A DNA stretch of 64,000 nucleotides, taken from assembly GCA_000004985.1 (NCBI GenBank), contig GG738899.1; one strand, 5' to 3'. Made by a program: the position numbers and the translations under genes. Shown here piece after piece: positions 8,080 through 63,259 of the stretch. The notes beneath the pieces were generated by a model, which worked only from the letters and a program-made list of their open reading frames with translations, did not search any database and was not told where the DNA came from. The stretch comes from Naegleria gruberi. Its lineage: Eukaryota. Each line of letters begins with the position of its first letter. Positions within the stretch are counted from its first letter, which is position 1.

Positions 8080-8160
8080 ATTAATTTGCCTTTTTGTAGA
8101 TAATTGCTATTGTAAAGCAATAATGAATTTTATATATTATATTTAGTATTTGTTTCAATA

Positions 8161-8423
8161 GGATTGTAATTTTTGATAACCATTTCAGAGAATATGTCTA
8201 TTTCATCCCAATTTGAGTTTTCGACATTTTCTTCCTCTTGCAGTATCTTTGAAAGATTACTTTTGGAGGTTCTTCTTCTTCTTCTTGTGGTTCTGTATTC
8301 ACTTGACTCTGTGAAGAAATCTTCTTCGTCATCGTGTTAATCTTCCATACTATCAAATCCAAGACTCTTCTTCTTTGGAGATGGCTGAGGTTGTTTTGAA
8401 CAATTAAGTATGGATTTATTAGT
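8161..8423 (-). pseudogene. Degenerate partial duplicate of the 3' end (last ~80 codons, stop and 3' flank) of the SCYL1-like gene at 10414..12687.
   Basis: Blocks are near-identical to 10401..10870: ccatttcagagaa(c/t)atgtctatttcatcccaatttgagttttcgacattttcttcctcttgcagtatctttgaaagattac, then ...tccatactatcaaatccaagac(t/c)cttcttc... Internal deletions and an in-frame TAA interrupt it. The alt-frame motif RRRVLDLIVWK is shared by ORFs 8198..8461 and 10563..10904. Confidence 0.6.
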
Positions 8424-10275: not shown

Positions 10276-10413
10276 TTTTTTACTTTGAGCTTTTCAAACT
10301 CCGAACTAATTTGAATTAGTTAGAAAAGAGATGGAAGATAAATAGATTCATATTATTTCTTATTCTTAAATTCGGAAAGAATATGACAAAATATCCTCAG
10401 CAGCTTGAGGTCT

Positions 10414-43001: not shown

Positions 43002-43402
43002 TTATTTTGATTTCTTATCATTATTATTAGTATCTAATTCATCACTAATTGGAATATCACTTCTCCATTTAACAGCAGCTCTTTTATAGAATGGCCAAGG
43101 TGGAACAACAAATATCAAGGCTAAAACTATTCCTAACAGGAAAATTCCTAATGTAAATGAAAACCTTTCAAAATAAAATCCAACAATAAATCCTATTATC
43201 TATTTAAACGTAATTATTAATATTATTCAATTATTCGTGATGATCAATTTTGGTTCCGATGATGAATAAAATAATGATGATTTATAAATTGATTAATACA
43301 TCTATAATAATATATATATTGAAACATTACTGATGATGAAATTAATAAATATCTGTACACTGATTCGGCAAGACTTTGTCCTCTAAAATCGATTGAAGTC
43401 AT
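43002..43402 (-). CDS. SPCS1: Signal peptidase complex subunit 1 (SPCS1/Spc12), 2 exons: ~43360..43402 and ~43005..43200, with a ~160-bp intron; coordinates ±1-2 nt.
   Basis: MTSIDFRGQSLAES|IIGFIVGFYFERFSFTLGIFLLGIVLALIFVVPPWPFYKRAAVKWRSD... matches SPCS1 (DYKGQKLAEQ...GFIYGY...LTLPPWPIYRRHPLKW). The donor is GTGTAC, which is non-consensus. Confidence 0.55.
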
Positions 43403-43547: not shown

Positions 43548-43598
43548 NNNNNNNNNNNNNNNNNNNNNNNNNNNNNNNNNNNNNNNNNNNNNNNNNNN
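43548..43598. other. Assembly gap (51 N).
   Basis: Run of n. Confidence 0.99.
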
Positions 43599-45163
43599 GT
43601 GATTCAACTTATTGTACAGCAGGCACTCCAACTATTCTCAATCCATCTGATCCTGCAAATACAAGAATCATCAGAGTTCAACCAATTAAGGGATCTTGTA
43701 ATTCTCAAAAATTCGTTTATGGTATCAAATCTGATTCTGATTCAACAACTGCCACAGCTATTGTTACAGTTTCTTATACCAAATGTACATGTTCTTTGAA
43801 TATGGATATTGTATTTGTTTTGGATGGTAGTTCATCTATTGATGCAGGAAATTGGATTAACATGCAAAACTTTGCATCCAATTTAACTGTTGGATTTGGT
43901 TCAAACATTTCACCAACTGCCACCAAGATTGGTATCATTCAATTCTCTACAACAACTGTAACTCACTTGGATTTGAAAGATGGTACTTCCAAGACAGCTG
44001 TTCTTAATGCCATTTCATCAGCTGGTCAACTCAAATCCAGTACCAACTCAATTTTAGGTATTAACAATGCTGTTTCAATGGTTTTAAGTCAAGGTAGAAA
44101 GGATATCACTAGAAAACTCTTAATTCACATTACAGATGGTATGTCCAATTTACCTTGTGGTATGGGAGCTTGTCGTGCCATGTATGGTAGTGATAAGTCA
44201 TTATATGGATCTGTTCCTAATTATTGTAAATCACCTCGTTTCCCAGGTACTGATGCAACAATATGCTCATGGAATGAGCCACTCAGTAGATGTAATCCTT
44301 GTTCTGATGCTACTCTTAGATCAACTGATTTGAATTCTTGGACAGTTGGAGGTGCTTCAAATCCAGAAAAATCAACTTATGGATCTATTTGGAATTGGAG
44401 ACAATTAGTTGTAGGTATTGGTGATGGTTTGAGTTCAGGGTATGGACAACTTCAAATTCAAAAGATGAATTACGATCCAAACAATTTAATTGTTGTCGAT
44501 TGGTCTGATTTGAGCTCTGTTTATCAAACTGTTATTGATAATAGTTGTAATCTTGTCGATTCCACTCAAACCAACGTTCTTGTTCCACTTTCAAGTTCTG
44601 GATATTCTATTCAATATCTTGGAAAGACATTGTCCAAATCAAGTTACCTTAATTATGAAGCAACCATTTCAACATTCACTTATCGTGTTAGTGTCTCTTC
44701 ATCAGCACCTGCTTTACAAAGATTTACCTTAGGATTACAACCTGGTTACAATCAAGATAACTTTGTAAATTATGATCCATACTTCCCAGTTTTCATTGGT
44801 CAAGACACTACCACTAATTTGAATGGTTTCACTTTCTTATCACTTCCAAATTCATATACAATTGCAGCTGGTTCATCAGATACCTATACATTGAGTATTG
44901 CTGGTGATATTCCTGAAGGTGTTATTACTTATGGTATGTCGGGTGGTTCACAATACACACAAGGAACTGTTAAGGGACCAAGTGGAGTGATCAACTCAAC
45001 CACAGTTGCTCTTCCACCAAATATTAATTACGGTGATGATTCAAGTTATAGAACTACCTATTGTTCCTCAACCAAATGTTATTTCTTTACCAAGATGAAT
45101 TATGCCTATCGTATTGAAGCAATGAGTAAGATTTGTAAATATTGGTCTGCCAATGCAACACTA
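43599..45163 (+). CDS. 3'-partial second copy (paralogue or haplotig) of the giant adhesin gene covering the last cadherin-like repeat, vWA and most of the CTLD. It has no 5' part (gap) and no stop (runs into the next gap).
   Basis: 1,565 nt co-linear with 27554..29118 at >99.8% identity. I see only 3 substitutions (aag>aaa, gaa>gag, tct>tca), all synonymous in the adhesin frame. Confidence 0.6.
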
Positions 45164-48100
45164 NNNNNNNNNNNNNNNNNNNNNNNNNNNNNNNNNNNNN
45201 NNNNNNNNNNNNNNNNNNNNNNNNNNNNNNNNNNNNNNNNNNNNNNNNNNNNNNNNNNNNNNNNNNNNNNNNNNNNNNNNNNNNNNNNNNNNNNNNNNNN
45301 NNNNNNNNNNNNNNNNNNNNNNNNNNNNNNNNNNNNNNNNNNNNNNNNNNNNNNNNNNNNNNNNNNNNNNNNNNNNNNNNNNNNNNNNNNNNNNNNNNNN
45401 NNNNNNNNNNNNNNNNNNNNNNNNNNNNNNNNNNNNNNNNNNNNNNNNNNNNNNNNNNNNNNNNNNNNNNNNNNNNNNNNNNNNNNNNNNNNNNNNNNNN
45501 NNNNNNNNNNNNNNNNNNNNNNNNNNNNNNNNNNNNNNNNNNNNNNNNNNNNNNNNNNNNNNNNNNNNNNNNNNNNNNNNNNNNNNNNNNNNNNNNNNNN
45601 NNNNNNNNNNNNNNNNNNNNNNNNNNNNNNNNNNNNNNNNNNNNNNNNNNNNNNNNNNNNNNNNNNNNNNNNNNNNNNNNNNNNNNNNNNNNNNNNNNNN
45701 NNNNNNNNNNNNNNNNNNNNNNNNNNNNNNNNNNNNNNNNNNNNNNNNNNNNNNNNNNNNNNNNNNNNNNNNNNNNNNNNNNNNNNNNNNNNNNNNNNNN
45801 NNNNNNNNNNNNNNNNNNNNNNNNNNNNNNNNNNNNNNNNNNNNNNNNNNNNNNNNNNNNNNNNNNNNNNNNNNNNNNNNNNNNNNNNNNNNNNNNNNNN
45901 NNNNNNNNNNNNNNNNNNNNNNNNNNNNNNNNNNNNNNNNNNNNNNNNNNNNNNNNNNNNNNNNNNNNNNNNNNNNNNNNNNNNNNNNNNNNNNNNNNNN
46001 NNNNNNNNNNNNNNNNNNNNNNNNNNNNNNNNNNNNNNNNNNNNNNNNNNNNNNNNNNNNNNNNNNNNNNNNNNNNNNNNNNNNNNNNNNNNNNNNNNNN
46101 NNNNNNNNNNNNNNNNNNNNNNNNNNNNNNNNNNNNNNNNNNNNNNNNNNNNNNNNNNNNNNNNNNNNNNNNNNNNNNNNNNNNNNNNNNNNNNNNNNNN
46201 NNNNNNNNNNNNNNNNNNNNNNNNNNNNNNNNNNNNNNNNNNNNNNNNNNNNNNNNNNNNNNNNNNNNNNNNNNNNNNNNNNNNNNNNNNNNNNNNNNNN
46301 NNNNNNNNNNNNNNNNNNNNNNNNNNNNNNNNNNNNNNNNNNNNNNNNNNNNNNNNNNNNNNNNNNNNNNNNNNNNNNNNNNNNNNNNNNNNNNNNNNNN
46401 NNNNNNNNNNNNNNNNNNNNNNNNNNNNNNNNNNNNNNNNNNNNNNNNNNNNNNNNNNNNNNNNNNNNNNNNNNNNNNNNNNNNNNNNNNNNNNNNNNNN
46501 NNNNNNNNNNNNNNNNNNNNNNNNNNNNNNNNNNNNNNNNNNNNNNNNNNNNNNNNNNNNNNNNNNNNNNNNNNNNNNNNNNNNNNNNNNNNNNNNNNNN
46601 NNNNNNNNNNNNNNNNNNNNNNNNNNNNNNNNNNNNNNNNNNNNNNNNNNNNNNNNNNNNNNNNNNNNNNNNNNNNNNNNNNNNNNNNNNNNNNNNNNNN
46701 NNNNNNNNNNNNNNNNNNNNNNNNNNNNNNNNNNNNNNNNNNNNNNNNNNNNNNNNNNNNNNNNNNNNNNNNNNNNNNNNNNNNNNNNNNNNNNNNNNNN
46801 NNNNNNNNNNNNNNNNNNNNNNNNNNNNNNNNNNNNNNNNNNNNNNNNNNNNNNNNNNNNNNNNNNNNNNNNNNNNNNNNNNNNNNNNNNNNNNNNNNNN
46901 NNNNNNNNNNNNNNNNNNNNNNNNNNNNNNNNNNNNNNNNNNNNNNNNNNNNNNNNNNNNNNNNNNNNNNNNNNNNNNNNNNNNNNNNNNNNNNNNNNNN
47001 NNNNNNNNNNNNNNNNNNNNNNNNNNNNNNNNNNNNNNNNNNNNNNNNNNNNNNNNNNNNNNNNNNNNNNNNNNNNNNNNNNNNNNNNNNNNNNNNNNNN
47101 NNNNNNNNNNNNNNNNNNNNNNNNNNNNNNNNNNNNNNNNNNNNNNNNNNNNNNNNNNNNNNNNNNNNNNNNNNNNNNNNNNNNNNNNNNNNNNNNNNNN
47201 NNNNNNNNNNNNNNNNNNNNNNNNNNNNNNNNNNNNNNNNNNNNNNNNNNNNNNNNNNNNNNNNNNNNNNNNNNNNNNNNNNNNNNNNNNNNNNNNNNNN
47301 NNNNNNNNNNNNNNNNNNNNNNNNNNNNNNNNNNNNNNNNNNNNNNNNNNNNNNNNNNNNNNNNNNNNNNNNNNNNNNNNNNNNNNNNNNNNNNNNNNNN
47401 NNNNNNNNNNNNNNNNNNNNNNNNNNNNNNNNNNNNNNNNNNNNNNNNNNNNNNNNNNNNNNNNNNNNNNNNNNNNNNNNNNNNNNNNNNNNNNNNNNNN
47501 NNNNNNNNNNNNNNNNNNNNNNNNNNNNNNNNNNNNNNNNNNNNNNNNNNNNNNNNNNNNNNNNNNNNNNNNNNNNNNNNNNNNNNNNNNNNNNNNNNNN
47601 NNNNNNNNNNNNNNNNNNNNNNNNNNNNNNNNNNNNNNNNNNNNNNNNNNNNNNNNNNNNNNNNNNNNNNNNNNNNNNNNNNNNNNNNNNNNNNNNNNNN
47701 NNNNNNNNNNNNNNNNNNNNNNNNNNNNNNNNNNNNNNNNNNNNNNNNNNNNNNNNNNNNNNNNNNNNNNNNNNNNNNNNNNNNNNNNNNNNNNNNNNNN
47801 NNNNNNNNNNNNNNNNNNNNNNNNNNNNNNNNNNNNNNNNNNNNNNNNNNNNNNNNNNNNNNNNNNNNNNNNNNNNNNNNNNNNNNNNNNNNNNNNNNNN
47901 NNNNNNNNNNNNNNNNNNNNNNNNNNNNNNNNNNNNNNNNNNNNNNNNNNNNNNNNNNNNNNNNNNNNNNNNNNNNNNNNNNNNNNNNNNNNNNNNNNNN
48001 NNNNNNNNNNNNNNNNNNNNNNNNNNNNNNNNNNNNNNNNNNNNNNNNNNNNNNNNNNNNNNNNNNNNNNNNNNNNNNNNNNNNNNNNNNNNNNNNNNNN

Positions 48101-51100
48101 NNNNNNNNNNNNNNNNNNNNNNNNNNNNNNNNNNNNNNNNNNNNNNNNNNNNNNNNNNNNNNNNNNNNNNNNNNNNNNNNNNNNNNNNNNNNNNNNNNNN
48201 NNNNNNNNNNNNNNNNNNNNNNNNNNNNNNNNNNNNNNNNNNNNNNNNNNNNNNNNNNNNNNNNNNNNNNNNNNNNNNNNNNNNNNNNNNNNNNNNNNNN
48301 NNNNNNNNNNNNNNNNNNNNNNNNNNNNNNNNNNNNNNNNNNNNNNNNNNNNNNNNNNNNNNNNNNNNNNNNNNNNNNNNNNNNNNNNNNNNNNNNNNNN
48401 NNNNNNNNNNNNNNNNNNNNNNNNNNNNNNNNNNNNNNNNNNNNNNNNNNNNNNNNNNNNNNNNNNNNNNNNNNNNNNNNNNNNNNNNNNNNNNNNNNNN
48501 NNNNNNNNNNNNNNNNNNNNNNNNNNNNNNNNNNNNNNNNNNNNNNNNNNNNNNNNNNNNNNNNNNNNNNNNNNNNNNNNNNNNNNNNNNNNNNNNNNNN
48601 NNNNNNNNNNNNNNNNNNNNNNNNNNNNNNNNNNNNNNNNNNNNNNNNNNNNNNNNNNNNNNNNNNNNNNNNNNNNNNNNNNNNNNNNNNNNNNNNNNNN
48701 NNNNNNNNNNNNNNNNNNNNNNNNNNNNNNNNNNNNNNNNNNNNNNNNNNNNNNNNNNNNNNNNNNNNNNNNNNNNNNNNNNNNNNNNNNNNNNNNNNNN
48801 NNNNNNNNNNNNNNNNNNNNNNNNNNNNNNNNNNNNNNNNNNNNNNNNNNNNNNNNNNNNNNNNNNNNNNNNNNNNNNNNNNNNNNNNNNNNNNNNNNNN
48901 NNNNNNNNNNNNNNNNNNNNNNNNNNNNNNNNNNNNNNNNNNNNNNNNNNNNNNNNNNNNNNNNNNNNNNNNNNNNNNNNNNNNNNNNNNNNNNNNNNNN
49001 NNNNNNNNNNNNNNNNNNNNNNNNNNNNNNNNNNNNNNNNNNNNNNNNNNNNNNNNNNNNNNNNNNNNNNNNNNNNNNNNNNNNNNNNNNNNNNNNNNNN
49101 NNNNNNNNNNNNNNNNNNNNNNNNNNNNNNNNNNNNNNNNNNNNNNNNNNNNNNNNNNNNNNNNNNNNNNNNNNNNNNNNNNNNNNNNNNNNNNNNNNNN
49201 NNNNNNNNNNNNNNNNNNNNNNNNNNNNNNNNNNNNNNNNNNNNNNNNNNNNNNNNNNNNNNNNNNNNNNNNNNNNNNNNNNNNNNNNNNNNNNNNNNNN
49301 NNNNNNNNNNNNNNNNNNNNNNNNNNNNNNNNNNNNNNNNNNNNNNNNNNNNNNNNNNNNNNNNNNNNNNNNNNNNNNNNNNNNNNNNNNNNNNNNNNNN
49401 NNNNNNNNNNNNNNNNNNNNNNNNNNNNNNNNNNNNNNNNNNNNNNNNNNNNNNNNNNNNNNNNNNNNNNNNNNNNNNNNNNNNNNNNNNNNNNNNNNNN
49501 NNNNNNNNNNNNNNNNNNNNNNNNNNNNNNNNNNNNNNNNNNNNNNNNNNNNNNNNNNNNNNNNNNNNNNNNNNNNNNNNNNNNNNNNNNNNNNNNNNNN
49601 NNNNNNNNNNNNNNNNNNNNNNNNNNNNNNNNNNNNNNNNNNNNNNNNNNNNNNNNNNNNNNNNNNNNNNNNNNNNNNNNNNNNNNNNNNNNNNNNNNNN
49701 NNNNNNNNNNNNNNNNNNNNNNNNNNNNNNNNNNNNNNNNNNNNNNNNNNNNNNNNNNNNNNNNNNNNNNNNNNNNNNNNNNNNNNNNNNNNNNNNNNNN
49801 NNNNNNNNNNNNNNNNNNNNNNNNNNNNNNNNNNNNNNNNNNNNNNNNNNNNNNNNNNNNNNNNNNNNNNNNNNNNNNNNNNNNNNNNNNNNNNNNNNNN
49901 NNNNNNNNNNNNNNNNNNNNNNNNNNNNNNNNNNNNNNNNNNNNNNNNNNNNNNNNNNNNNNNNNNNNNNNNNNNNNNNNNNNNNNNNNNNNNNNNNNNN
50001 NNNNNNNNNNNNNNNNNNNNNNNNNNNNNNNNNNNNNNNNNNNNNNNNNNNNNNNNNNNNNNNNNNNNNNNNNNNNNNNNNNNNNNNNNNNNNNNNNNNN
50101 NNNNNNNNNNNNNNNNNNNNNNNNNNNNNNNNNNNNNNNNNNNNNNNNNNNNNNNNNNNNNNNNNNNNNNNNNNNNNNNNNNNNNNNNNNNNNNNNNNNN
50201 NNNNNNNNNNNNNNNNNNNNNNNNNNNNNNNNNNNNNNNNNNNNNNNNNNNNNNNNNNNNNNNNNNNNNNNNNNNNNNNNNNNNNNNNNNNNNNNNNNNN
50301 NNNNNNNNNNNNNNNNNNNNNNNNNNNNNNNNNNNNNNNNNNNNNNNNNNNNNNNNNNNNNNNNNNNNNNNNNNNNNNNNNNNNNNNNNNNNNNNNNNNN
50401 NNNNNNNNNNNNNNNNNNNNNNNNNNNNNNNNNNNNNNNNNNNNNNNNNNNNNNNNNNNNNNNNNNNNNNNNNNNNNNNNNNNNNNNNNNNNNNNNNNNN
50501 NNNNNNNNNNNNNNNNNNNNNNNNNNNNNNNNNNNNNNNNNNNNNNNNNNNNNNNNNNNNNNNNNNNNNNNNNNNNNNNNNNNNNNNNNNNNNNNNNNNN
50601 NNNNNNNNNNNNNNNNNNNNNNNNNNNNNNNNNNNNNNNNNNNNNNNNNNNNNNNNNNNNNNNNNNNNNNNNNNNNNNNNNNNNNNNNNNNNNNNNNNNN
50701 NNNNNNNNNNNNNNNNNNNNNNNNNNNNNNNNNNNNNNNNNNNNNNNNNNNNNNNNNNNNNNNNNNNNNNNNNNNNNNNNNNNNNNNNNNNNNNNNNNNN
50801 NNNNNNNNNNNNNNNNNNNNNNNNNNNNNNNNNNNNNNNNNNNNNNNNNNNNNNNNNNNNNNNNNNNNNNNNNNNNNNNNNNNNNNNNNNNNNNNNNNNN
50901 NNNNNNNNNNNNNNNNNNNNNNNNNNNNNNNNNNNNNNNNNNNNNNNNNNNNNNNNNNNNNNNNNNNNNNNNNNNNNNNNNNNNNNNNNNNNNNNNNNNN
51001 NNNNNNNNNNNNNNNNNNNNNNNNNNNNNNNNNNNNNNNNNNNNNNNNNNNNNNNNNNNNNNNNNNNNNNNNNNNNNNNNNNNNNNNNNNNNNNNNNNNN

Positions 51101-54100
51101 NNNNNNNNNNNNNNNNNNNNNNNNNNNNNNNNNNNNNNNNNNNNNNNNNNNNNNNNNNNNNNNNNNNNNNNNNNNNNNNNNNNNNNNNNNNNNNNNNNNN
51201 NNNNNNNNNNNNNNNNNNNNNNNNNNNNNNNNNNNNNNNNNNNNNNNNNNNNNNNNNNNNNNNNNNNNNNNNNNNNNNNNNNNNNNNNNNNNNNNNNNNN
51301 NNNNNNNNNNNNNNNNNNNNNNNNNNNNNNNNNNNNNNNNNNNNNNNNNNNNNNNNNNNNNNNNNNNNNNNNNNNNNNNNNNNNNNNNNNNNNNNNNNNN
51401 NNNNNNNNNNNNNNNNNNNNNNNNNNNNNNNNNNNNNNNNNNNNNNNNNNNNNNNNNNNNNNNNNNNNNNNNNNNNNNNNNNNNNNNNNNNNNNNNNNNN
51501 NNNNNNNNNNNNNNNNNNNNNNNNNNNNNNNNNNNNNNNNNNNNNNNNNNNNNNNNNNNNNNNNNNNNNNNNNNNNNNNNNNNNNNNNNNNNNNNNNNNN
51601 NNNNNNNNNNNNNNNNNNNNNNNNNNNNNNNNNNNNNNNNNNNNNNNNNNNNNNNNNNNNNNNNNNNNNNNNNNNNNNNNNNNNNNNNNNNNNNNNNNNN
51701 NNNNNNNNNNNNNNNNNNNNNNNNNNNNNNNNNNNNNNNNNNNNNNNNNNNNNNNNNNNNNNNNNNNNNNNNNNNNNNNNNNNNNNNNNNNNNNNNNNNN
51801 NNNNNNNNNNNNNNNNNNNNNNNNNNNNNNNNNNNNNNNNNNNNNNNNNNNNNNNNNNNNNNNNNNNNNNNNNNNNNNNNNNNNNNNNNNNNNNNNNNNN
51901 NNNNNNNNNNNNNNNNNNNNNNNNNNNNNNNNNNNNNNNNNNNNNNNNNNNNNNNNNNNNNNNNNNNNNNNNNNNNNNNNNNNNNNNNNNNNNNNNNNNN
52001 NNNNNNNNNNNNNNNNNNNNNNNNNNNNNNNNNNNNNNNNNNNNNNNNNNNNNNNNNNNNNNNNNNNNNNNNNNNNNNNNNNNNNNNNNNNNNNNNNNNN
52101 NNNNNNNNNNNNNNNNNNNNNNNNNNNNNNNNNNNNNNNNNNNNNNNNNNNNNNNNNNNNNNNNNNNNNNNNNNNNNNNNNNNNNNNNNNNNNNNNNNNN
52201 NNNNNNNNNNNNNNNNNNNNNNNNNNNNNNNNNNNNNNNNNNNNNNNNNNNNNNNNNNNNNNNNNNNNNNNNNNNNNNNNNNNNNNNNNNNNNNNNNNNN
52301 NNNNNNNNNNNNNNNNNNNNNNNNNNNNNNNNNNNNNNNNNNNNNNNNNNNNNNNNNNNNNNNNNNNNNNNNNNNNNNNNNNNNNNNNNNNNNNNNNNNN
52401 NNNNNNNNNNNNNNNNNNNNNNNNNNNNNNNNNNNNNNNNNNNNNNNNNNNNNNNNNNNNNNNNNNNNNNNNNNNNNNNNNNNNNNNNNNNNNNNNNNNN
52501 NNNNNNNNNNNNNNNNNNNNNNNNNNNNNNNNNNNNNNNNNNNNNNNNNNNNNNNNNNNNNNNNNNNNNNNNNNNNNNNNNNNNNNNNNNNNNNNNNNNN
52601 NNNNNNNNNNNNNNNNNNNNNNNNNNNNNNNNNNNNNNNNNNNNNNNNNNNNNNNNNNNNNNNNNNNNNNNNNNNNNNNNNNNNNNNNNNNNNNNNNNNN
52701 NNNNNNNNNNNNNNNNNNNNNNNNNNNNNNNNNNNNNNNNNNNNNNNNNNNNNNNNNNNNNNNNNNNNNNNNNNNNNNNNNNNNNNNNNNNNNNNNNNNN
52801 NNNNNNNNNNNNNNNNNNNNNNNNNNNNNNNNNNNNNNNNNNNNNNNNNNNNNNNNNNNNNNNNNNNNNNNNNNNNNNNNNNNNNNNNNNNNNNNNNNNN
52901 NNNNNNNNNNNNNNNNNNNNNNNNNNNNNNNNNNNNNNNNNNNNNNNNNNNNNNNNNNNNNNNNNNNNNNNNNNNNNNNNNNNNNNNNNNNNNNNNNNNN
53001 NNNNNNNNNNNNNNNNNNNNNNNNNNNNNNNNNNNNNNNNNNNNNNNNNNNNNNNNNNNNNNNNNNNNNNNNNNNNNNNNNNNNNNNNNNNNNNNNNNNN
53101 NNNNNNNNNNNNNNNNNNNNNNNNNNNNNNNNNNNNNNNNNNNNNNNNNNNNNNNNNNNNNNNNNNNNNNNNNNNNNNNNNNNNNNNNNNNNNNNNNNNN
53201 NNNNNNNNNNNNNNNNNNNNNNNNNNNNNNNNNNNNNNNNNNNNNNNNNNNNNNNNNNNNNNNNNNNNNNNNNNNNNNNNNNNNNNNNNNNNNNNNNNNN
53301 NNNNNNNNNNNNNNNNNNNNNNNNNNNNNNNNNNNNNNNNNNNNNNNNNNNNNNNNNNNNNNNNNNNNNNNNNNNNNNNNNNNNNNNNNNNNNNNNNNNN
53401 NNNNNNNNNNNNNNNNNNNNNNNNNNNNNNNNNNNNNNNNNNNNNNNNNNNNNNNNNNNNNNNNNNNNNNNNNNNNNNNNNNNNNNNNNNNNNNNNNNNN
53501 NNNNNNNNNNNNNNNNNNNNNNNNNNNNNNNNNNNNNNNNNNNNNNNNNNNNNNNNNNNNNNNNNNNNNNNNNNNNNNNNNNNNNNNNNNNNNNNNNNNN
53601 NNNNNNNNNNNNNNNNNNNNNNNNNNNNNNNNNNNNNNNNNNNNNNNNNNNNNNNNNNNNNNNNNNNNNNNNNNNNNNNNNNNNNNNNNNNNNNNNNNNN
53701 NNNNNNNNNNNNNNNNNNNNNNNNNNNNNNNNNNNNNNNNNNNNNNNNNNNNNNNNNNNNNNNNNNNNNNNNNNNNNNNNNNNNNNNNNNNNNNNNNNNN
53801 NNNNNNNNNNNNNNNNNNNNNNNNNNNNNNNNNNNNNNNNNNNNNNNNNNNNNNNNNNNNNNNNNNNNNNNNNNNNNNNNNNNNNNNNNNNNNNNNNNNN
53901 NNNNNNNNNNNNNNNNNNNNNNNNNNNNNNNNNNNNNNNNNNNNNNNNNNNNNNNNNNNNNNNNNNNNNNNNNNNNNNNNNNNNNNNNNNNNNNNNNNNN
54001 NNNNNNNNNNNNNNNNNNNNNNNNNNNNNNNNNNNNNNNNNNNNNNNNNNNNNNNNNNNNNNNNNNNNNNNNNNNNNNNNNNNNNNNNNNNNNNNNNNNN

Positions 54101-57100
54101 NNNNNNNNNNNNNNNNNNNNNNNNNNNNNNNNNNNNNNNNNNNNNNNNNNNNNNNNNNNNNNNNNNNNNNNNNNNNNNNNNNNNNNNNNNNNNNNNNNNN
54201 NNNNNNNNNNNNNNNNNNNNNNNNNNNNNNNNNNNNNNNNNNNNNNNNNNNNNNNNNNNNNNNNNNNNNNNNNNNNNNNNNNNNNNNNNNNNNNNNNNNN
54301 NNNNNNNNNNNNNNNNNNNNNNNNNNNNNNNNNNNNNNNNNNNNNNNNNNNNNNNNNNNNNNNNNNNNNNNNNNNNNNNNNNNNNNNNNNNNNNNNNNNN
54401 NNNNNNNNNNNNNNNNNNNNNNNNNNNNNNNNNNNNNNNNNNNNNNNNNNNNNNNNNNNNNNNNNNNNNNNNNNNNNNNNNNNNNNNNNNNNNNNNNNNN
54501 NNNNNNNNNNNNNNNNNNNNNNNNNNNNNNNNNNNNNNNNNNNNNNNNNNNNNNNNNNNNNNNNNNNNNNNNNNNNNNNNNNNNNNNNNNNNNNNNNNNN
54601 NNNNNNNNNNNNNNNNNNNNNNNNNNNNNNNNNNNNNNNNNNNNNNNNNNNNNNNNNNNNNNNNNNNNNNNNNNNNNNNNNNNNNNNNNNNNNNNNNNNN
54701 NNNNNNNNNNNNNNNNNNNNNNNNNNNNNNNNNNNNNNNNNNNNNNNNNNNNNNNNNNNNNNNNNNNNNNNNNNNNNNNNNNNNNNNNNNNNNNNNNNNN
54801 NNNNNNNNNNNNNNNNNNNNNNNNNNNNNNNNNNNNNNNNNNNNNNNNNNNNNNNNNNNNNNNNNNNNNNNNNNNNNNNNNNNNNNNNNNNNNNNNNNNN
54901 NNNNNNNNNNNNNNNNNNNNNNNNNNNNNNNNNNNNNNNNNNNNNNNNNNNNNNNNNNNNNNNNNNNNNNNNNNNNNNNNNNNNNNNNNNNNNNNNNNNN
55001 NNNNNNNNNNNNNNNNNNNNNNNNNNNNNNNNNNNNNNNNNNNNNNNNNNNNNNNNNNNNNNNNNNNNNNNNNNNNNNNNNNNNNNNNNNNNNNNNNNNN
55101 NNNNNNNNNNNNNNNNNNNNNNNNNNNNNNNNNNNNNNNNNNNNNNNNNNNNNNNNNNNNNNNNNNNNNNNNNNNNNNNNNNNNNNNNNNNNNNNNNNNN
55201 NNNNNNNNNNNNNNNNNNNNNNNNNNNNNNNNNNNNNNNNNNNNNNNNNNNNNNNNNNNNNNNNNNNNNNNNNNNNNNNNNNNNNNNNNNNNNNNNNNNN
55301 NNNNNNNNNNNNNNNNNNNNNNNNNNNNNNNNNNNNNNNNNNNNNNNNNNNNNNNNNNNNNNNNNNNNNNNNNNNNNNNNNNNNNNNNNNNNNNNNNNNN
55401 NNNNNNNNNNNNNNNNNNNNNNNNNNNNNNNNNNNNNNNNNNNNNNNNNNNNNNNNNNNNNNNNNNNNNNNNNNNNNNNNNNNNNNNNNNNNNNNNNNNN
55501 NNNNNNNNNNNNNNNNNNNNNNNNNNNNNNNNNNNNNNNNNNNNNNNNNNNNNNNNNNNNNNNNNNNNNNNNNNNNNNNNNNNNNNNNNNNNNNNNNNNN
55601 NNNNNNNNNNNNNNNNNNNNNNNNNNNNNNNNNNNNNNNNNNNNNNNNNNNNNNNNNNNNNNNNNNNNNNNNNNNNNNNNNNNNNNNNNNNNNNNNNNNN
55701 NNNNNNNNNNNNNNNNNNNNNNNNNNNNNNNNNNNNNNNNNNNNNNNNNNNNNNNNNNNNNNNNNNNNNNNNNNNNNNNNNNNNNNNNNNNNNNNNNNNN
55801 NNNNNNNNNNNNNNNNNNNNNNNNNNNNNNNNNNNNNNNNNNNNNNNNNNNNNNNNNNNNNNNNNNNNNNNNNNNNNNNNNNNNNNNNNNNNNNNNNNNN
55901 NNNNNNNNNNNNNNNNNNNNNNNNNNNNNNNNNNNNNNNNNNNNNNNNNNNNNNNNNNNNNNNNNNNNNNNNNNNNNNNNNNNNNNNNNNNNNNNNNNNN
56001 NNNNNNNNNNNNNNNNNNNNNNNNNNNNNNNNNNNNNNNNNNNNNNNNNNNNNNNNNNNNNNNNNNNNNNNNNNNNNNNNNNNNNNNNNNNNNNNNNNNN
56101 NNNNNNNNNNNNNNNNNNNNNNNNNNNNNNNNNNNNNNNNNNNNNNNNNNNNNNNNNNNNNNNNNNNNNNNNNNNNNNNNNNNNNNNNNNNNNNNNNNNN
56201 NNNNNNNNNNNNNNNNNNNNNNNNNNNNNNNNNNNNNNNNNNNNNNNNNNNNNNNNNNNNNNNNNNNNNNNNNNNNNNNNNNNNNNNNNNNNNNNNNNNN
56301 NNNNNNNNNNNNNNNNNNNNNNNNNNNNNNNNNNNNNNNNNNNNNNNNNNNNNNNNNNNNNNNNNNNNNNNNNNNNNNNNNNNNNNNNNNNNNNNNNNNN
56401 NNNNNNNNNNNNNNNNNNNNNNNNNNNNNNNNNNNNNNNNNNNNNNNNNNNNNNNNNNNNNNNNNNNNNNNNNNNNNNNNNNNNNNNNNNNNNNNNNNNN
56501 NNNNNNNNNNNNNNNNNNNNNNNNNNNNNNNNNNNNNNNNNNNNNNNNNNNNNNNNNNNNNNNNNNNNNNNNNNNNNNNNNNNNNNNNNNNNNNNNNNNN
56601 NNNNNNNNNNNNNNNNNNNNNNNNNNNNNNNNNNNNNNNNNNNNNNNNNNNNNNNNNNNNNNNNNNNNNNNNNNNNNNNNNNNNNNNNNNNNNNNNNNNN
56701 NNNNNNNNNNNNNNNNNNNNNNNNNNNNNNNNNNNNNNNNNNNNNNNNNNNNNNNNNNNNNNNNNNNNNNNNNNNNNNNNNNNNNNNNNNNNNNNNNNNN
56801 NNNNNNNNNNNNNNNNNNNNNNNNNNNNNNNNNNNNNNNNNNNNNNNNNNNNNNNNNNNNNNNNNNNNNNNNNNNNNNNNNNNNNNNNNNNNNNNNNNNN
56901 NNNNNNNNNNNNNNNNNNNNNNNNNNNNNNNNNNNNNNNNNNNNNNNNNNNNNNNNNNNNNNNNNNNNNNNNNNNNNNNNNNNNNNNNNNNNNNNNNNNN
57001 NNNNNNNNNNNNNNNNNNNNNNNNNNNNNNNNNNNNNNNNNNNNNNNNNNNNNNNNNNNNNNNNNNNNNNNNNNNNNNNNNNNNNNNNNNNNNNNNNNNN

Positions 57101-59552
57101 NNNNNNNNNNNNNNNNNNNNNNNNNNNNNNNNNNNNNNNNNNNNNNNNNNNNNNNNNNNNNNNNNNNNNNNNNNNNNNNNNNNNNNNNNNNNNNNNNNNN
57201 NNNNNNNNNNNNNNNNNNNNNNNNNNNNNNNNNNNNNNNNNNNNNNNNNNNNNNNNNNNNNNNNNNNNNNNNNNNNNNNNNNNNNNNNNNNNNNNNNNNN
57301 NNNNNNNNNNNNNNNNNNNNNNNNNNNNNNNNNNNNNNNNNNNNNNNNNNNNNNNNNNNNNNNNNNNNNNNNNNNNNNNNNNNNNNNNNNNNNNNNNNNN
57401 NNNNNNNNNNNNNNNNNNNNNNNNNNNNNNNNNNNNNNNNNNNNNNNNNNNNNNNNNNNNNNNNNNNNNNNNNNNNNNNNNNNNNNNNNNNNNNNNNNNN
57501 NNNNNNNNNNNNNNNNNNNNNNNNNNNNNNNNNNNNNNNNNNNNNNNNNNNNNNNNNNNNNNNNNNNNNNNNNNNNNNNNNNNNNNNNNNNNNNNNNNNN
57601 NNNNNNNNNNNNNNNNNNNNNNNNNNNNNNNNNNNNNNNNNNNNNNNNNNNNNNNNNNNNNNNNNNNNNNNNNNNNNNNNNNNNNNNNNNNNNNNNNNNN
57701 NNNNNNNNNNNNNNNNNNNNNNNNNNNNNNNNNNNNNNNNNNNNNNNNNNNNNNNNNNNNNNNNNNNNNNNNNNNNNNNNNNNNNNNNNNNNNNNNNNNN
57801 NNNNNNNNNNNNNNNNNNNNNNNNNNNNNNNNNNNNNNNNNNNNNNNNNNNNNNNNNNNNNNNNNNNNNNNNNNNNNNNNNNNNNNNNNNNNNNNNNNNN
57901 NNNNNNNNNNNNNNNNNNNNNNNNNNNNNNNNNNNNNNNNNNNNNNNNNNNNNNNNNNNNNNNNNNNNNNNNNNNNNNNNNNNNNNNNNNNNNNNNNNNN
58001 NNNNNNNNNNNNNNNNNNNNNNNNNNNNNNNNNNNNNNNNNNNNNNNNNNNNNNNNNNNNNNNNNNNNNNNNNNNNNNNNNNNNNNNNNNNNNNNNNNNN
58101 NNNNNNNNNNNNNNNNNNNNNNNNNNNNNNNNNNNNNNNNNNNNNNNNNNNNNNNNNNNNNNNNNNNNNNNNNNNNNNNNNNNNNNNNNNNNNNNNNNNN
58201 NNNNNNNNNNNNNNNNNNNNNNNNNNNNNNNNNNNNNNNNNNNNNNNNNNNNNNNNNNNNNNNNNNNNNNNNNNNNNNNNNNNNNNNNNNNNNNNNNNNN
58301 NNNNNNNNNNNNNNNNNNNNNNNNNNNNNNNNNNNNNNNNNNNNNNNNNNNNNNNNNNNNNNNNNNNNNNNNNNNNNNNNNNNNNNNNNNNNNNNNNNNN
58401 NNNNNNNNNNNNNNNNNNNNNNNNNNNNNNNNNNNNNNNNNNNNNNNNNNNNNNNNNNNNNNNNNNNNNNNNNNNNNNNNNNNNNNNNNNNNNNNNNNNN
58501 NNNNNNNNNNNNNNNNNNNNNNNNNNNNNNNNNNNNNNNNNNNNNNNNNNNNNNNNNNNNNNNNNNNNNNNNNNNNNNNNNNNNNNNNNNNNNNNNNNNN
58601 NNNNNNNNNNNNNNNNNNNNNNNNNNNNNNNNNNNNNNNNNNNNNNNNNNNNNNNNNNNNNNNNNNNNNNNNNNNNNNNNNNNNNNNNNNNNNNNNNNNN
58701 NNNNNNNNNNNNNNNNNNNNNNNNNNNNNNNNNNNNNNNNNNNNNNNNNNNNNNNNNNNNNNNNNNNNNNNNNNNNNNNNNNNNNNNNNNNNNNNNNNNN
58801 NNNNNNNNNNNNNNNNNNNNNNNNNNNNNNNNNNNNNNNNNNNNNNNNNNNNNNNNNNNNNNNNNNNNNNNNNNNNNNNNNNNNNNNNNNNNNNNNNNNN
58901 NNNNNNNNNNNNNNNNNNNNNNNNNNNNNNNNNNNNNNNNNNNNNNNNNNNNNNNNNNNNNNNNNNNNNNNNNNNNNNNNNNNNNNNNNNNNNNNNNNNN
59001 NNNNNNNNNNNNNNNNNNNNNNNNNNNNNNNNNNNNNNNNNNNNNNNNNNNNNNNNNNNNNNNNNNNNNNNNNNNNNNNNNNNNNNNNNNNNNNNNNNNN
59101 NNNNNNNNNNNNNNNNNNNNNNNNNNNNNNNNNNNNNNNNNNNNNNNNNNNNNNNNNNNNNNNNNNNNNNNNNNNNNNNNNNNNNNNNNNNNNNNNNNNN
59201 NNNNNNNNNNNNNNNNNNNNNNNNNNNNNNNNNNNNNNNNNNNNNNNNNNNNNNNNNNNNNNNNNNNNNNNNNNNNNNNNNNNNNNNNNNNNNNNNNNNN
59301 NNNNNNNNNNNNNNNNNNNNNNNNNNNNNNNNNNNNNNNNNNNNNNNNNNNNNNNNNNNNNNNNNNNNNNNNNNNNNNNNNNNNNNNNNNNNNNNNNNNN
59401 NNNNNNNNNNNNNNNNNNNNNNNNNNNNNNNNNNNNNNNNNNNNNNNNNNNNNNNNNNNNNNNNNNNNNNNNNNNNNNNNNNNNNNNNNNNNNNNNNNNN
59501 NNNNNNNNNNNNNNNNNNNNNNNNNNNNNNNNNNNNNNNNNNNNNNNNNNNN
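45164..59552. other. Assembly gap (14,389 N).
   Basis: Run of n. All ORF-track proteins made of X here are artefacts. Confidence 0.99.
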
Positions 59553-60470
59553 ACAAATGTGGTGATCATAAAGCAGTAGAACATCAACATCATCAACATC
59601 ATGGTGAACAATGTTCTCATCAACATCATCATCAACATGATAAAGTAGAATCATCATCTGCTAATCTTTCTGCTGTACAAATTAATAGCATGTCATTTGA
59701 TCAAATTGCTAGTGGATGGGATTCAAATCCAAACAAGTCTCAATTCTCTCGTAATGTAGCTAATGGTATTATGGAAGTACATGAACATGCTAGAAATCAA
59801 AGTGAAAAATTATCAAATTCTAATTTACTTGTTATGGATTTTGGAGCAGGAACTGGTACTTTAACTTTAATGTTTTTGAATCATTATCTTTCACAAATTG
59901 AAAGAATTGATGCTGTTGATGTTAGTTCTGGAATGTTATCACAATTACAAGATAAAATTACCAAATTAACAAATGATAACATGTTAACATGTGGTGAAAA
60001 GATTGTTATTAATAATATTGACTTGGAATTGGCTGAACAATCTTTACATCCTATTAGTTTAAATAAGGGTAAATATAATGTTATCATGTCTGGTATGGTT
60101 TTCCACCACTTGGAAAATATTCCAGAAAAGATTAAATTAATTTCATCTTATTTGGCTCCTGGAGGTATGTTTATTTTGGATTAGAATAATCATCATTTAT
60201 ACTATATTTAAATAATATTAAGGTGTTTTAATTTTCACAGATATTGATAAGGATGAAGAACATTCTGATAAATTCCATTGTAAACATATGAGTGATGCAG
60301 TTCAATATAAGGGTGGATTCAGTGCTTCTGAATTAAAAGTTTGGTTAAATGATGCTGGTTTAGTTAATGAACAATTTTTCAGAAATGTTGAAAATGCAAA
60401 GAAGGGAAATGATGGAATGGAACGAAAATTCACTTTAATGACCACATTAGCTTTCAAACCAGAAATTTAA
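59553..60470 (+). CDS. Class I SAM-dependent methyltransferase with a His-rich N-region, 5'-truncated by the gap. Exon ..59553..60164, intron 60165..60240, exon 60241..60470.
   Basis: Motif I LVMDFGAGTGTLTLMFL, motif post-II/III VIMSGMVFHHL...LAPGG. The splice GGAG|gtatgt...cacag|ATATT continues in frame into DIDKDEEHS...MERKFTLMTTLAFKPEI and joins ORF 60288..60470. Confidence 0.65.
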
Positions 60471-63259
60471 TAAAACTCTTTCATATTTGGATCTAACATA
60501 AAGTTTTCAACAATTGATAAAACTGAAGATCCTTTCTCAACTCGAGGAGATTCTATTGGTTTGGCTTTTTGATATAACAATTCTTCCAATCTCTTTGATG
60601 GTACATTCCTAACTGGTGTTTTCAATTGTGCTTGTTGGAATTGTTGTGAATAAGACATTGTCTGTTGTTGAGATTGTCTTATTGGATCTGATCTTGAAAC
60701 TTCCATTATTGGCTTTGGCCTTTCTGGTATTCTTTCTCGTTCTTGATTAAGTTTTTCTGTTGGAATTGGTGTAATTATTGGTCTAGGTCTTTCTGGTACC
60801 TTTTCTCTTTCTGTAATTCTTTCAGGTACCTTATCTATAGGTTGAGTAGGCTTAGAAATTATATTTTGTTGAGTTGATGCTCTATTAGAATATTGTGGTA
60901 CATAACCACCCATATTACTTGGATTTGTTTGATTTCTTACTATTGATTGAGGCTTAACTGGTGGTGGATTTTGAGGAGGTAAGGAAATTTCTTGTTGTTT
61001 TGGAATTGGTGTTGAAGATTGTCTTGTTAATCTTGGTGGAGGTTTGGAAACTATAAAGTTTGAAACATTATCTTGTTGAGGAGTTTCTTCATCTTCATGG
61101 ACATTTGGCTTATCTTTTGGAATTGGTGGTGGTTTAGATTTTACAGGTGAATCAATTTTAGAAATATTTGATGCATCTATTATTTCAGATGAATTTAAAA
61201 CTGGTTCATCTCTAATTGCTGTCTCTTCATTCTTCGATGTTACTAAAACAGGTTCAAAATTACCCTTATGTGGATTTGTTTTTTTATCCATTTGAATTTG
61301 ATCTTTAATTTTAGATTCAATTCTATTCAAATTATATGGAATACTGTAATGATATTATGTAAAAATTGTAATGAAAATATTTGAACATACCCAAATTTAG
61401 GTGGAACAGAAGAATGCCTAGTATTTGATTGTTTTTTCAAAGGTGTCTTTTTTGTAGGATCTTTCTTAGATGTTACTCCTTTCTTCTTTTTTGCAGGAGA
61501 TGCCATATTAGTTGACCATGCAATTGATTTTGGATTTTCTTCTTCTTGAATAATTGGTCCTTCTTCTATTGGAATTGTTAATTTTTGAGGTCTTGGTTTT
61601 GAGATTGGTACTTGCTCATTAATAATATCTGAATTTGCTCTTCCTCTAGGTGTTGTTACTTGAGAAGGTGTTTGACTATTTGAATAGGATGATGGAGGAG
61701 GTGAAATACTACTAGTAGCATTATAATTTATAATTTTGAATTGGATTTGATTGAATTGGAATTGCTGGTTGTTGGGATGGTTGCATGTAAACTTGTGATT
61801 GTTGAGGTGGAAAAGAAGATTGAGGAGGATTAATATGATGATGAATTACAGGTGAACTTAATGGATGACTTTGATAGGAAGGATAATGAACAAATGTTGG
61901 TTGGTGAGGAATAATTTGAGGTGAAAATGTTGGTGGATAGGCATGTTGAGTATTATTTGGATATGGAGGGTTGAAATAATCATGAACATTAGGTATTGCT
62001 TGTTGGTGATTTGGTGTATTGGAATAATAAGAAGGACGTTGCTGAGCATCATATTGAGGTTGTTGTCTCATTAATGTTGGTGAATCATCATATGAATTAT
62101 TGGAATAAGGATTGTTATTATAATTATTTTGTTGTTGCTGTTGTTGATAAGATGATCTATTGTTATTATTATTGGATTGTTGTCCCTTATTGGGTGATGA
62201 TGGTATCATATTATTAGGCTTTTCAGTCAAGTAATCACCTTCTCTATTATTATAATTTGAATACTGTTGTTGTTGATTATTGTTGTTTGATTGAAAATTA
62301 ACTCCTTGTCTTTCACCTTTTCGCCATCTAGAAGAAGGCTTGAATCTACTTTCATCATTTTCATAATTATCATCATACTCCTGTTGTTGTCTATTATATC
62401 CATTATTATTATTATTATTGAATCCAGTGTTATTATTATTATTGTATGACTGTCTTTGATCATAAGGTTGTTGAGGCTGTTGCTGTTGTGGTTGAGAATT
62501 GTTTGTATTGTGGAGTGATTCTATAATATATAAATTTGAATAAGACATCATCTCCGATATTAAATTAAAACATACCAGCAATATCTCTAATAACTTCCAG
62601 TGATGAATAAGGTCCATTTCTCTTATTGACTGTCCTAATTCCAATCAAGACAAGATATGCAATAATTTGATCCAATTCTTCGGAGAAGGNNNNNNNNNNN
62701 NNNNNNNNNNNNNNNNNNNNNNNNNNNNNNNNNNNNNNNGTAAATTTTTAAAACTAGTAAAACTCCAATTAATTATATTTTCAATTTGTTTGTTAATTAA
62801 TTCTAATTCATTTAAATTATTAATCATATCATTATCAATTGTAATTATTAAATGATTTGGAAATTTTATTTCATTTTCATCTTTAAATTCTAAATTATTA
62901 ACATTTATTGTTTTGGATTTAAATAATTTTATAATCATTAAATATATTAAATATATTAAATATAATATTAAATAAAGTGTATGTATTATATAATTAAGAA
63001 TTCTTCTAAATATATTATTACTATTATTACTAATATTATTACTATTATTATCAATTTTATCATAATTCAATGATGAGCCTAATGATGATGATGATGAGGC
63101 TTTTAAAGGTGGAGAAGGAGAAAGTGATTCCGTTGTAGTAGGTGATGATGATGATAACTTTCTTGTTGTTGATAATAATTCATCTTCCTCTTGTTTTATA
63201 TATTTCTTACTAGTCGTCAAGTTAGGCTGATGATGATGATGATTATTCTTGTTGGACAT
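60467..63259 (-). CDS. Q/N/P-rich low-complexity multi-exon gene. The terminal exon 60467..61343 is well defined (intron 61344..61390). Upstream Q/N-rich exons (61391..~62644) and the N-terminal exon (~62645..63259, interrupted by the 50-N gap 62690..62739) are tentative.
   Basis: GTATGT...ACAG intron joins ...SSVPPKFG|IPYNLNRIESKIKDQ... The C-terminal exon is Pro-rich (KPPPIPKDKP..., PPQNPPPVKP) and ends ...SKRLEELLYQKAKPIESPRVEKGSSVLSIVENFMLDPNMKEFY. Upstream frames (61721..62644 and 62645..63259) are open and Q/N-rich, but I could not fully reconcile their phases. Confidence 0.35.
62690..62739. other. Assembly gap (50 N).
   Basis: Run of n. Confidence 0.99.

Follow-up and report, generated by a model that had tools for sequence, protein, structure and literature searches.

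A gap-flanked partial copy of a giant adhesin-like gene in the Naegleria gruberi NEG-M assembly is probably an unmerged allele

The DNA analysed here (the window) is a 64,000-nt stretch of contig GG738899.1 of the Naegleria gruberi assembly GCA_000004985.1. Its UFL1 ORF matches an N. gruberi protein at 100%, and its adhesin matches XP_002672240.1 equally well. It contains a giant adhesin-like gene and, further downstream, a small contig bounded by N runs (the island) that repeats part of the 3' region of this gene. The features on which the argument depends are as follows.

18388..29412, plus strand: adhesin-like gene NAEGRDRAFT_72752, an uninterrupted ORF of 3,674 codons, matching XP_002672240.1
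27554..29118, plus strand: copy 1, part of the adhesin ORF in the long left contig
28185..28392, plus strand: SNP cluster of 208 nt holding all three differences found by comparison of the copies (island positions 44230, 44278 and 44437)
43002..43402, minus strand: SPC12/SPCS1 gene, two exons (Pfam PF06645, E 1.6e-25)
43548..43598, no strand: gap of 51 N between the left contig and the island
43599..45163, plus strand: island contig ('second copy'), 1,565 nt, with N runs at both edges
45164..59552, no strand: gap of 14,389 N after the island
59553..60470, plus strand: class-I SAM-dependent methyltransferase gene, one intron, exon 1 at 59553-60184, 5'-truncated by about 46 nt of CDS
62690..62739, no strand: further small gap of 50 N

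The gene with the duplicated end is the already annotated NAEGRDRAFT_72752, of which the JGI model (2,816 aa) falls 858 aa below the uninterrupted ORF. Its product comprises approximately 24 Big_9/cadherin-like repeats, an ice-binding-like domain (encoded at about 25495-25977), a VWA domain (aa 3125-3239) and a Cys-rich C-terminal domain. The last of these was labelled 'CTLD' in the initial annotation, a name that finds no Pfam match even at E<=10 and has in its favour a weak match to the snaclec agglucetin in a PDB sequence search (E 0.03-0.04); the AlphaFold prediction for the C-terminal 618 aa, made from a two-sequence alignment, has a mean pLDDT of 32.7, too low for use. The 618-aa C-terminal module is shared, at 42-60% identity, with heterolobosean giant surface proteins of the 'Tandem-95 repeat' or Big_9/cadherin-like type that carry a C-terminal VWA module, those compared being NAEGRDRAFT_79811, NAEGRDRAFT_79080, C9374_012226 of N. 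lovaniensis and ABK040_005755 of Willaertia magna, although this likeness concerns the host gene and not the duplicated island. The N. gruberi adhesin family includes at least three diverged paralogues, and the known paralogues are only 53-60% identical to the island module, while no second N. gruberi protein with at least 90% identity to the adhesin was found in the protein collection. The adhesin homologue search also returned a locus (L003) that is the orthologue of a different paralogue, NAEGRDRAFT_79080, and is therefore uninformative on the NAEGRDRAFT_72752 locus. No relatives emerged when JGI metagenome contigs were scanned with the methyltransferase and with the adhesin C-terminal alignment. 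Look-ups by exact protein sequence with the adhesin, UFL1, SPCS1 exon 1 and ORFs of 73 and 253 aa gave no entry, in an index from which the NEG-M genome is apparently absent.

All 1,565 nt of the island align to 27554-29118 with three mismatches and no indels, giving an identity of 99.81%, which is far above chance, and the two segments share their orientation and lie 16,045 nt apart. The mismatches (copy 1/island) are 28185 G/44230 A, 28233 A/44278 G and 28392 T/44437 A, and each is a third-position change that is synonymous in ORF 18388-29412 (AAG/AAA at Lys3266, GAA/GAG at Glu3282 and TCT/TCA at Ser3335). The repetition of copy 1 in the same orientation with three synonymous substitutions, as described in the initial annotation, is thus borne out by the alignment. 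Synonymous changes account for 22.9% of the possible single-base changes in the island stretch, so three synonymous changes out of three would have a probability of approximately 0.012 if they were random errors. The corresponding value is approximately 0.3 under purifying selection on both sequences and approximately 0.04 for a truncated pseudogene, the latter two figures being our own estimates with an assumed omega of about 0.15.

The island is open in the adhesin frame (island frame 3) over 521 codons, with neither a start nor a stop, and corresponds to adhesin residues ~3057-3577. It begins 9,166 nt into the adhesin gene and falls short of the stop codon by 294 nt. It includes the last repeat and the VWA domain, as first annotated, followed by a middle region, but of the Cys-rich C-terminal domain only about 30 residues, those at its start. 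Within the island, the SNP cluster is flanked by identical sequence of 631 nt on the left and 726 nt on the right, each shorter than one Sanger read. Neither the island nor the adjoining contig ends contain a novel junction or unique sequence, and every base of the island falls inside the span of copy 1. At the three variant sites the bases of the L003 paralogue differ from the island variants, which gives no sign of gene conversion from this paralogue.

From 29118, where copy 1 ends, to 43547, where the left contig ends, is 14,429 nt; the N run that follows the island is 14,389 long, shorter by 40 nt (0.3%). If gap size were unrelated to the position of copy 1, a value within 1 kb of 14,429 would be expected only approximately 5% of the time, on the assumption that gap sizes range up to that of a fosmid. 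The 51-N gap looks like a floor-sized placeholder, presumably of about 50 N, for a negative or overlapping gap estimate. Against this reading, it is one N above the apparent 50-N floor. Searches for overlap between the contig ends at 43547 and 59553, and between the flanks of the 50-N gap, returned chance matches only.

The genes on either side of the interval are those reported earlier, namely SPCS1, ending at about 43400 (its ATG is at 43402), and the methyltransferase, resuming at 59553, and the adjoining gaps, described earlier as a 51-N gap upstream of the island and a 14.4-kb gap downstream, were confirmed at 51 N and 14,389 N. Upstream of the SPCS1 ATG, 145 nt remain before the left contig ends, and the methyltransferase contig begins within a stretch rich in His codons. 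A search with the methyltransferase retrieved a contig of the ENA metagenome ERZ929261 (L002) from a strain that is 99% identical in nucleotides to NEG-M, which extends 299 nt upstream of the methyltransferase ATG. The longest ORF in these 299 nt has at most 47 codons, and they show no similarity to the adhesin 3' end or to the sequence downstream of it. As judged from its sequence, this stretch, which stops before SPCS1, is compatible with a short intergenic region between SPCS1 and the methyltransferase. The left end of L002 and the end of the left contig do not overlap. L002 puts the genuine sequence missing from the 14,389-N gap at no less than ~345 nt, of which about 46 nt are methyltransferase CDS and 299 nt lie upstream. 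This value stands against the -40 nt implied by the gap arithmetic, a mismatch that only the uncertainty of clone-size estimates could accommodate.

These observations suggest that the island is probably an unmerged allelic contig placed in the next gap, and hence an assembly artefact rather than a new gene copy. This explanation is favoured because of the gap arithmetic, the floor of about 50 N, the flanks shorter than a read, the exclusively synonymous changes, the reported heterozygosity and the single-copy state of relatives. N. gruberi NEG-M is described as heterozygous, in a mosaic pattern, in passages of two papers that cite Fritz-Laylin 2010 (PMC9928731; PMC6201504). Sanger reads of the alternative allele over a heterozygous 208-nt SNP cluster of NAEGRDRAFT_72752 would have assembled into a small contig, while reads that did not span the cluster, being the same in both haplotypes, would have been absorbed by the main contig, so that the island would extend past the cluster by 631 and 726 nt, each below the length of a read. 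Mate pairs would then have set the island at its true position of 27.5-29.1 kb, inside the long left contig, and since a contig cannot be written within another contig, it would have been listed after the left contig. The scaffolder may have raised the resulting negative gap to its minimum of about 50 N, with the second gap preserving the island's true distance from the contig that follows. A false tandem duplicate would in this way add approximately 16 kb to the interval between SPCS1 and the methyltransferase, which in reality is probably a divergent, only partly sequenced intergenic region with a length of about 0.5-1 kb. The allelic nature of the three differences, the behaviour of the scaffolder and the true size of the interval are what we infer from these data. 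The initial annotation had offered an allelic or haplotig fragment misplaced in the scaffold as its second choice; this alternative fits every test that was run. At 99.8% identity most assemblers would be expected to merge the reads, and a very recent real duplication would also be this identical; both points count against an unmerged allele.

The proposed origin corresponds to a described class of assembly error. Kelley & Salzberg 2010 (Genome Biol 11:R28) reported 'duplicated contained contigs', which are false segmental duplications arising from unmerged haplotypes and are defined as contigs of which more than 93% aligns, at more than 95% identity, to nearby sequence from a different contig within their scaffold (PMC2864568). 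Most of them are shorter than 2 kb (one worked example measures 1,537 bp), and in the cow, chimpanzee and chicken assemblies ~30-52% were found by mate pairs to be erroneous haplotype duplicates (PMC2864568). The island exceeds both thresholds, with 100% of its 1,565 nt aligned at 99.81%. Like members of the class, it is a small contig whose full length aligns to a larger neighbour in its own scaffold, it mimics a recent tandem duplication, and the assembly to which it belongs was made by Sanger whole-genome shotgun sequencing from a heterozygous organism; placement by mate links, as in the class, is presumed for the island. Heterozygosity itself is drawn solely from the literature, from the passages already cited (PMC9928731; PMC6201504). 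The island differs from typical members in its higher identity, since false duplicates have a median identity of 98.1% and few exceed 99.5% (PMC2864568). The class is defined by mate-pair likelihood, for which the gap sizes around the island serve as an indirect proxy; this proxy is positive, but a real 16-kb tandem unit would give identical numbers. The island is also similar to collapsed recent tandem or segmental duplications, in which only the differing reads are resolved, in being near-identical to a sequence 16 kb upstream, in the same orientation, and flanked by gaps. However, it differs from these in carrying no junction sequence, in occupying a position incompatible with a full-length copy and in showing exclusively synonymous differences, which are unexpected for a truncated copy.

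A real and very young copy-number change in NEG-M, perhaps in one haplotype only, in the form of either a 16-kb segmental duplication or a full adhesin gene hidden in the gap, is considered unlikely. Of its two forms, the former is closer to the scaffold, which would be right as drawn: a very recent tandem duplication with a unit of ~16 kb (~27.5-43.5 kb) would have its junction in the 51-N gap, its second copy would start mid-adhesin as a fragment of ~1.9 kb truncated at the 5' end, and the 14.4-kb gap would hold the collapsed second copies of about eight genes located between 29.5 and 43.5 kb. The gap arithmetic is predicted alike by such a duplication and by an allelic overlay, and the gaps at face value agree with the duplication, with 51 N for the junction and 14,389 N for the 14,429-nt remainder of the unit. 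The left contig, moreover, ends at the exact site expected for a fork at a repeat boundary, and an identity of 99.81% is typical of young duplications, few haplotype artefacts being so similar (PMC2864568). Nevertheless, neither the island nor the left contig carries any assembled read across the junction, which would be unique sequence, although these are only 51 nt apart, and a copy of 16 kb would have its differences confined to one 208-nt patch. The truncated adhesin would be a pseudogene, for which three synonymous changes out of three carry the probability of ~0.04 estimated above, and in a de Bruijn assembly a shared repeat boundary predicts the overlap between the left end of L002 and the end of the left contig that is lacking. 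Taken with these points, a duplication of this kind appears distinctly improbable.

The other form, an intact second plus-strand adhesin of ~11 kb located in the SPCS1-methyltransferase interval, a gene whose body would have been collapsed onto the identical copy 1 with the SNP-bearing reads alone resolved, was the reading preferred in the initial annotation and is very unlikely. The interval as drawn (16,005 nt) could contain the 11,025-nt gene, as had been pointed out, synonymous-only differences would suit two functional copies, and the diverged paralogues attest to earlier duplication in the family. The fit, however, holds for the total length alone and ignores the reported gap sizes, the island lying at the opposite end of the interval from that required by a full-length plus-strand copy. 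Since it begins 9,166 nt into the gene, at least 9.2 kb would be needed upstream of it, and approximately 0.3-5 kb would be needed on its 3' side, whereas the scaffold has 51 N and 14,389 N, respectively; both gap estimates would have to err by 9-10 kb in opposite directions, and this geometry contradicts the collapsed full-length duplicate. The 299 nt upstream of the methyltransferase in the 99%-identical strain, devoid of adhesin 3' end and downstream sequence, also argue against it, as do the N. lovaniensis and W. magna homologues, which lack a tandem copy. Finally, the island may not represent variation at the adhesin locus at all, being produced by read or cloning errors or by a near-identical copy elsewhere in the genome that was drawn in by similarity. 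It is small enough to consist of two to four reads, and no part of a Sanger draft scaffold is less reliable than its tiny gap-flanked contigs, but random errors would yield three synonymous third-position changes with the p of ~0.012 given above. A copy elsewhere would have unique flanks and would form a longer contig, the known paralogues reach no more than 53-60% identity in the island module, and a misplaced contig would not yield the coincidence of 14,429 and 14,389. Such an origin is given the slimmest chance of all. 

The 10 kb to each side of the adhesin homologue was free of any tandem copy in both N. lovaniensis and Willaertia magna, where the genes lie on contigs 0.15 and 1.0 Mb long; as neither locus is syntenic with the window, this is a weak test. 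In N. lovaniensis the gene order around UFL1 is kept for thioredoxin-UFL1-NSRP1 and then broken before SPCS1, and is uninformative on the gap.

Should the island be an unmerged allele, the distance between SPCS1 and the methyltransferase is approximately 16 kb too long in the NEG-M reference, a phantom partial adhesin splits read mappings over 27.5-29.1 kb and three heterozygous sites are concealed. The main value of the island consequently lies in the caution it imposes on the use of the NEG-M assembly and not in any evidence for the evolution of adhesin copy number, a suggestion made earlier that the island feature does not support. If, on the other hand, the duplication is real, it would constitute a modest case of a free-living amoeba in which a giant surface-protein locus has recently changed in structure, relevant to curators of Naegleria genomes and unsurprising for specialists, and a real change in copy number would make this giant surface-adhesin locus structurally polymorphic in NEG-M, a laboratory strain. 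Nanopore reads of Romero Charria et al. 2024 under EBI BioStudies S-BSST1363, together with EM-seq and WGBS data for NEG-M, are publicly available (PMC12344493).

The contig at 43599-45163 (the island) is collinear, with no indels, with 27554-29118 (copy 1) in the 3' part of the adhesin ORF (18388-29412, plus strand). The features that bear on its placement are listed below.

Features surrounding the island
27554-29118, plus strand: copy 1
36924-39605: UFL1-like ORF, matching a predicted protein of Naegleria gruberi at 100 % identity
start at 43402, minus strand: SPC12/SPCS1, two exons
43548-43598: run of 51 N
43599-45163, same strand as 27554-29118: island, 1,565 nt, bounded by the first two N runs
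45164-59552: run of 14,389 N
3' of the 14,389-N gap: SAM-dependent methyltransferase, 5' end missing
62690-62739: run of 50 N

The two sequences differ at three positions (copy 1/island: 28185 G/A, 28233 A/G and 28392 T/A), which fall in the codons Lys3266, Glu3282 and Ser3335 and are in each case synonymous third-position changes. The differences are confined to 208 nt (island offsets 632-839) flanked by 631 and 726 identical bases, and comparison with copy 1 revealed no junction and no unique base in the island. The initial annotation accurately described a near-identical, gap-flanked second copy with synonymous-only differences. It also correctly assigned the island to the end of the adhesin, but the domain content is smaller than proposed. 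The island starts 9,166 nt into the ORF and breaks off 294 nt short of the stop codon, so that no more than the initial ~30 residues of the Cys-rich C-terminal domain are present.

The gap does lie between SPCS1 and the methyltransferase, and the summed interval between them would accommodate the 11-kb tandem adhesin paralogue that had been preferred as an explanation; the position of the island inside that interval would not. A full-length plus-strand copy needs at least 9.2 kb upstream and at most ~5 kb downstream of the island, whereas the scaffold gives 51 N and 14,389 N, respectively, so that both estimates would have to be 9-10 kb off, in opposite directions. The collapsed paralogue is therefore not supported, and a full-length second gene is very unlikely. 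On the other hand, copy 1 ends (29118) 14,429 nt before its contig does (43547), a distance that differs by only 40 nt from the 14,389-N gap, and the 51-N gap is close to an apparent floor value (the window's remaining small gap measures 50 N). These sizes are expected if the island truly sits atop copy 1. Assuming gap sizes up to fosmid size, an unrelated gap would come within 1 kb of 14,429 with a chance of ~5 %.

The sequence beyond the gap is represented in a metagenome contig (L002, ENA ERZ929261) that shares 99.04 % identity with window 59617-61290 and provides the missing methyltransferase start. Window position 59553 corresponds to about position 346 of this contig; thus, ~46 nt of coding sequence and at least 299 nt upstream are truly absent from the window, and a true sequence gap exists before the methyltransferase. 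The 299 nt contain no ORF longer than 47 codons and resemble neither the adhesin 3' end nor its downstream region nor the end of the left contig, which holds copy 1. According to L002, no adhesin sequence lies immediately 5' of the methyltransferase. A short intergenic region between divergent SPCS1 and methyltransferase genes would agree with this pattern; L002 ends before reaching SPCS1. The His-rich N-terminus of the methyltransferase carries a 39-nt in-frame indel (13 codons; window 59553-59645 versus L002 346-399), and the NEG-M contig begins within this gene's CAT/CAA-rich stretch. The source of L002 is a public metagenome (run ERR1078381, project PRJEB11402) containing an N. gruberi-like strain with ~99 % nucleotide identity to NEG-M, which could serve as an independent check on NEG-M assembly gaps.

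The island is probably a mis-scaffolded allelic fragment, which the initial annotation had listed as its alternative and which is in line with both the geometry and the substitution pattern. Mate pairs would have put the island at 27.5-29.1 kb; as it could not be placed within another contig, it may have been output after the left contig, with the floor value in place of the negative gap and the spacing to the following contig preserved at its true size. The island would then consist of a handful of Sanger reads, all spanning the differing sites, while reads missing those sites would match the main contig and be merged into it. Passages in two published reports describe Naegleria as mainly heterozygous diploid and attribute mosaic heterozygosity to N. 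gruberi NEG-M (PMC9928731, PMC6201504).

Synonymous changes represent 22.9 % of the possible single-base changes in this stretch, which gives p ~0.012 for three synonymous changes out of three at random and speaks against errors of sequencing or cloning. An origin in errors or in a foreign copy is very unlikely. The pattern rather favours purifying selection on both sequences. By a rough estimate (omega ~0.15), the probability of three synonymous changes out of three is ~0.3 for alleles or two intact genes, compared with ~0.04 where one of the copies is a pseudogene truncated at its 5' end. The strongest rival, a real tandem segmental duplication of ~16 kb (unit ~27.5-43.5 kb), predicts the same gap numbers but is nonetheless unlikely: no assembled read crosses the junction, though the contigs are just 51 nt apart, the would-be truncated pseudogene has only synonymous changes, and the left-contig end is not overlapped by L002. 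Since the geometry speaks against a full second gene and the substitutions against a truncated copy, only the allelic reading fits both.

As a mis-scaffolded allele, the island would be an assembly artefact of a known type, in a gene already annotated. Its layout matches that of duplicated contained contigs, which are false segmental duplications arising where heterozygous genomes are assembled from Sanger whole-genome data (Kelley & Salzberg 2010, PMC2864568). Such contigs are small (mostly <2 kb; the island is 1,565 nt) and, like the island, contained in a neighbouring contig, beside which mate links put them, creating an apparent recent duplication. The alignment of the island to copy 1 is above the thresholds of that study. 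Few of the artefacts in that study exceeded 99.5 % identity, compared with 99.8 % here, which speaks against placing the island in this class.

The adhesin ORF corresponds to NAEGRDRAFT_72752 (XP_002672240.1), deposited as a 2,816-aa model versus the 3,674 aa encoded by the uninterrupted ORF. The last ~1,506 aa of the model are identical to and collinear with the ORF; ~858 aa of repeats seem to have been spliced out, and an ~80-aa extra N-terminus is taken from upstream. Pfam identified 24 Big_9 stretches with overlapping Cadherin_4 and Cadherin_5 matches and one VWA domain (aa 3125-3239). An ice-binding-like domain (PF11999, E 8.9e-10, 39 bits versus a cutoff of 28.7; window 25495-25977, aa ~2370-2530) sits between the cadherin-like repeat arrays and is missing from the whole-protein Pfam table (E<=0.01). 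The earlier C-type lectin label for the Cys-rich C-terminal domain was not borne out by Pfam, even at E<=10, the sole other signal being a weak match (E 0.03) to a snake-venom C-type lectin-like protein.

The protein collection contains no second N. gruberi protein at least 90 % identical to NAEGRDRAFT_72752. At least two diverged paralogues on other scaffolds share its 618-aa C-terminal module, NAEGRDRAFT_79811 (53 % identity) and NAEGRDRAFT_79080 (~59 %). Homologues were found in N. lovaniensis and Willaertia magna; both are single genes that lack a tandem copy in the surrounding 10 kb, but as neither locus is syntenic with the window, this counts only weakly against a tandem duplication. 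Another contig of the same metagenome (k127_207918, 2531-4801) carries only the 3' module of NAEGRDRAFT_79080 (one or two repeats, VWA and C-terminal domain; 753-756 aa), in an ORF that begins directly after a stop codon and adjoins a minus-strand DUF4495 gene. Possible causes are an intron, chimerism of the metagenome contig or genuine truncation of the copy.

Elsewhere in the window, the 50-N gap, whose flanks do not overlap each other, breaks an apparent single minus-strand Q/N/P-rich coding region (ORFs 61721-62644 and 62645-63259). A 104-nt direct repeat (8160-8263 and 10408-10511) has copies 2,248 nt apart with 95 % identity, the second overlapping the 3' end of a minus-strand ORF (10414-12672).
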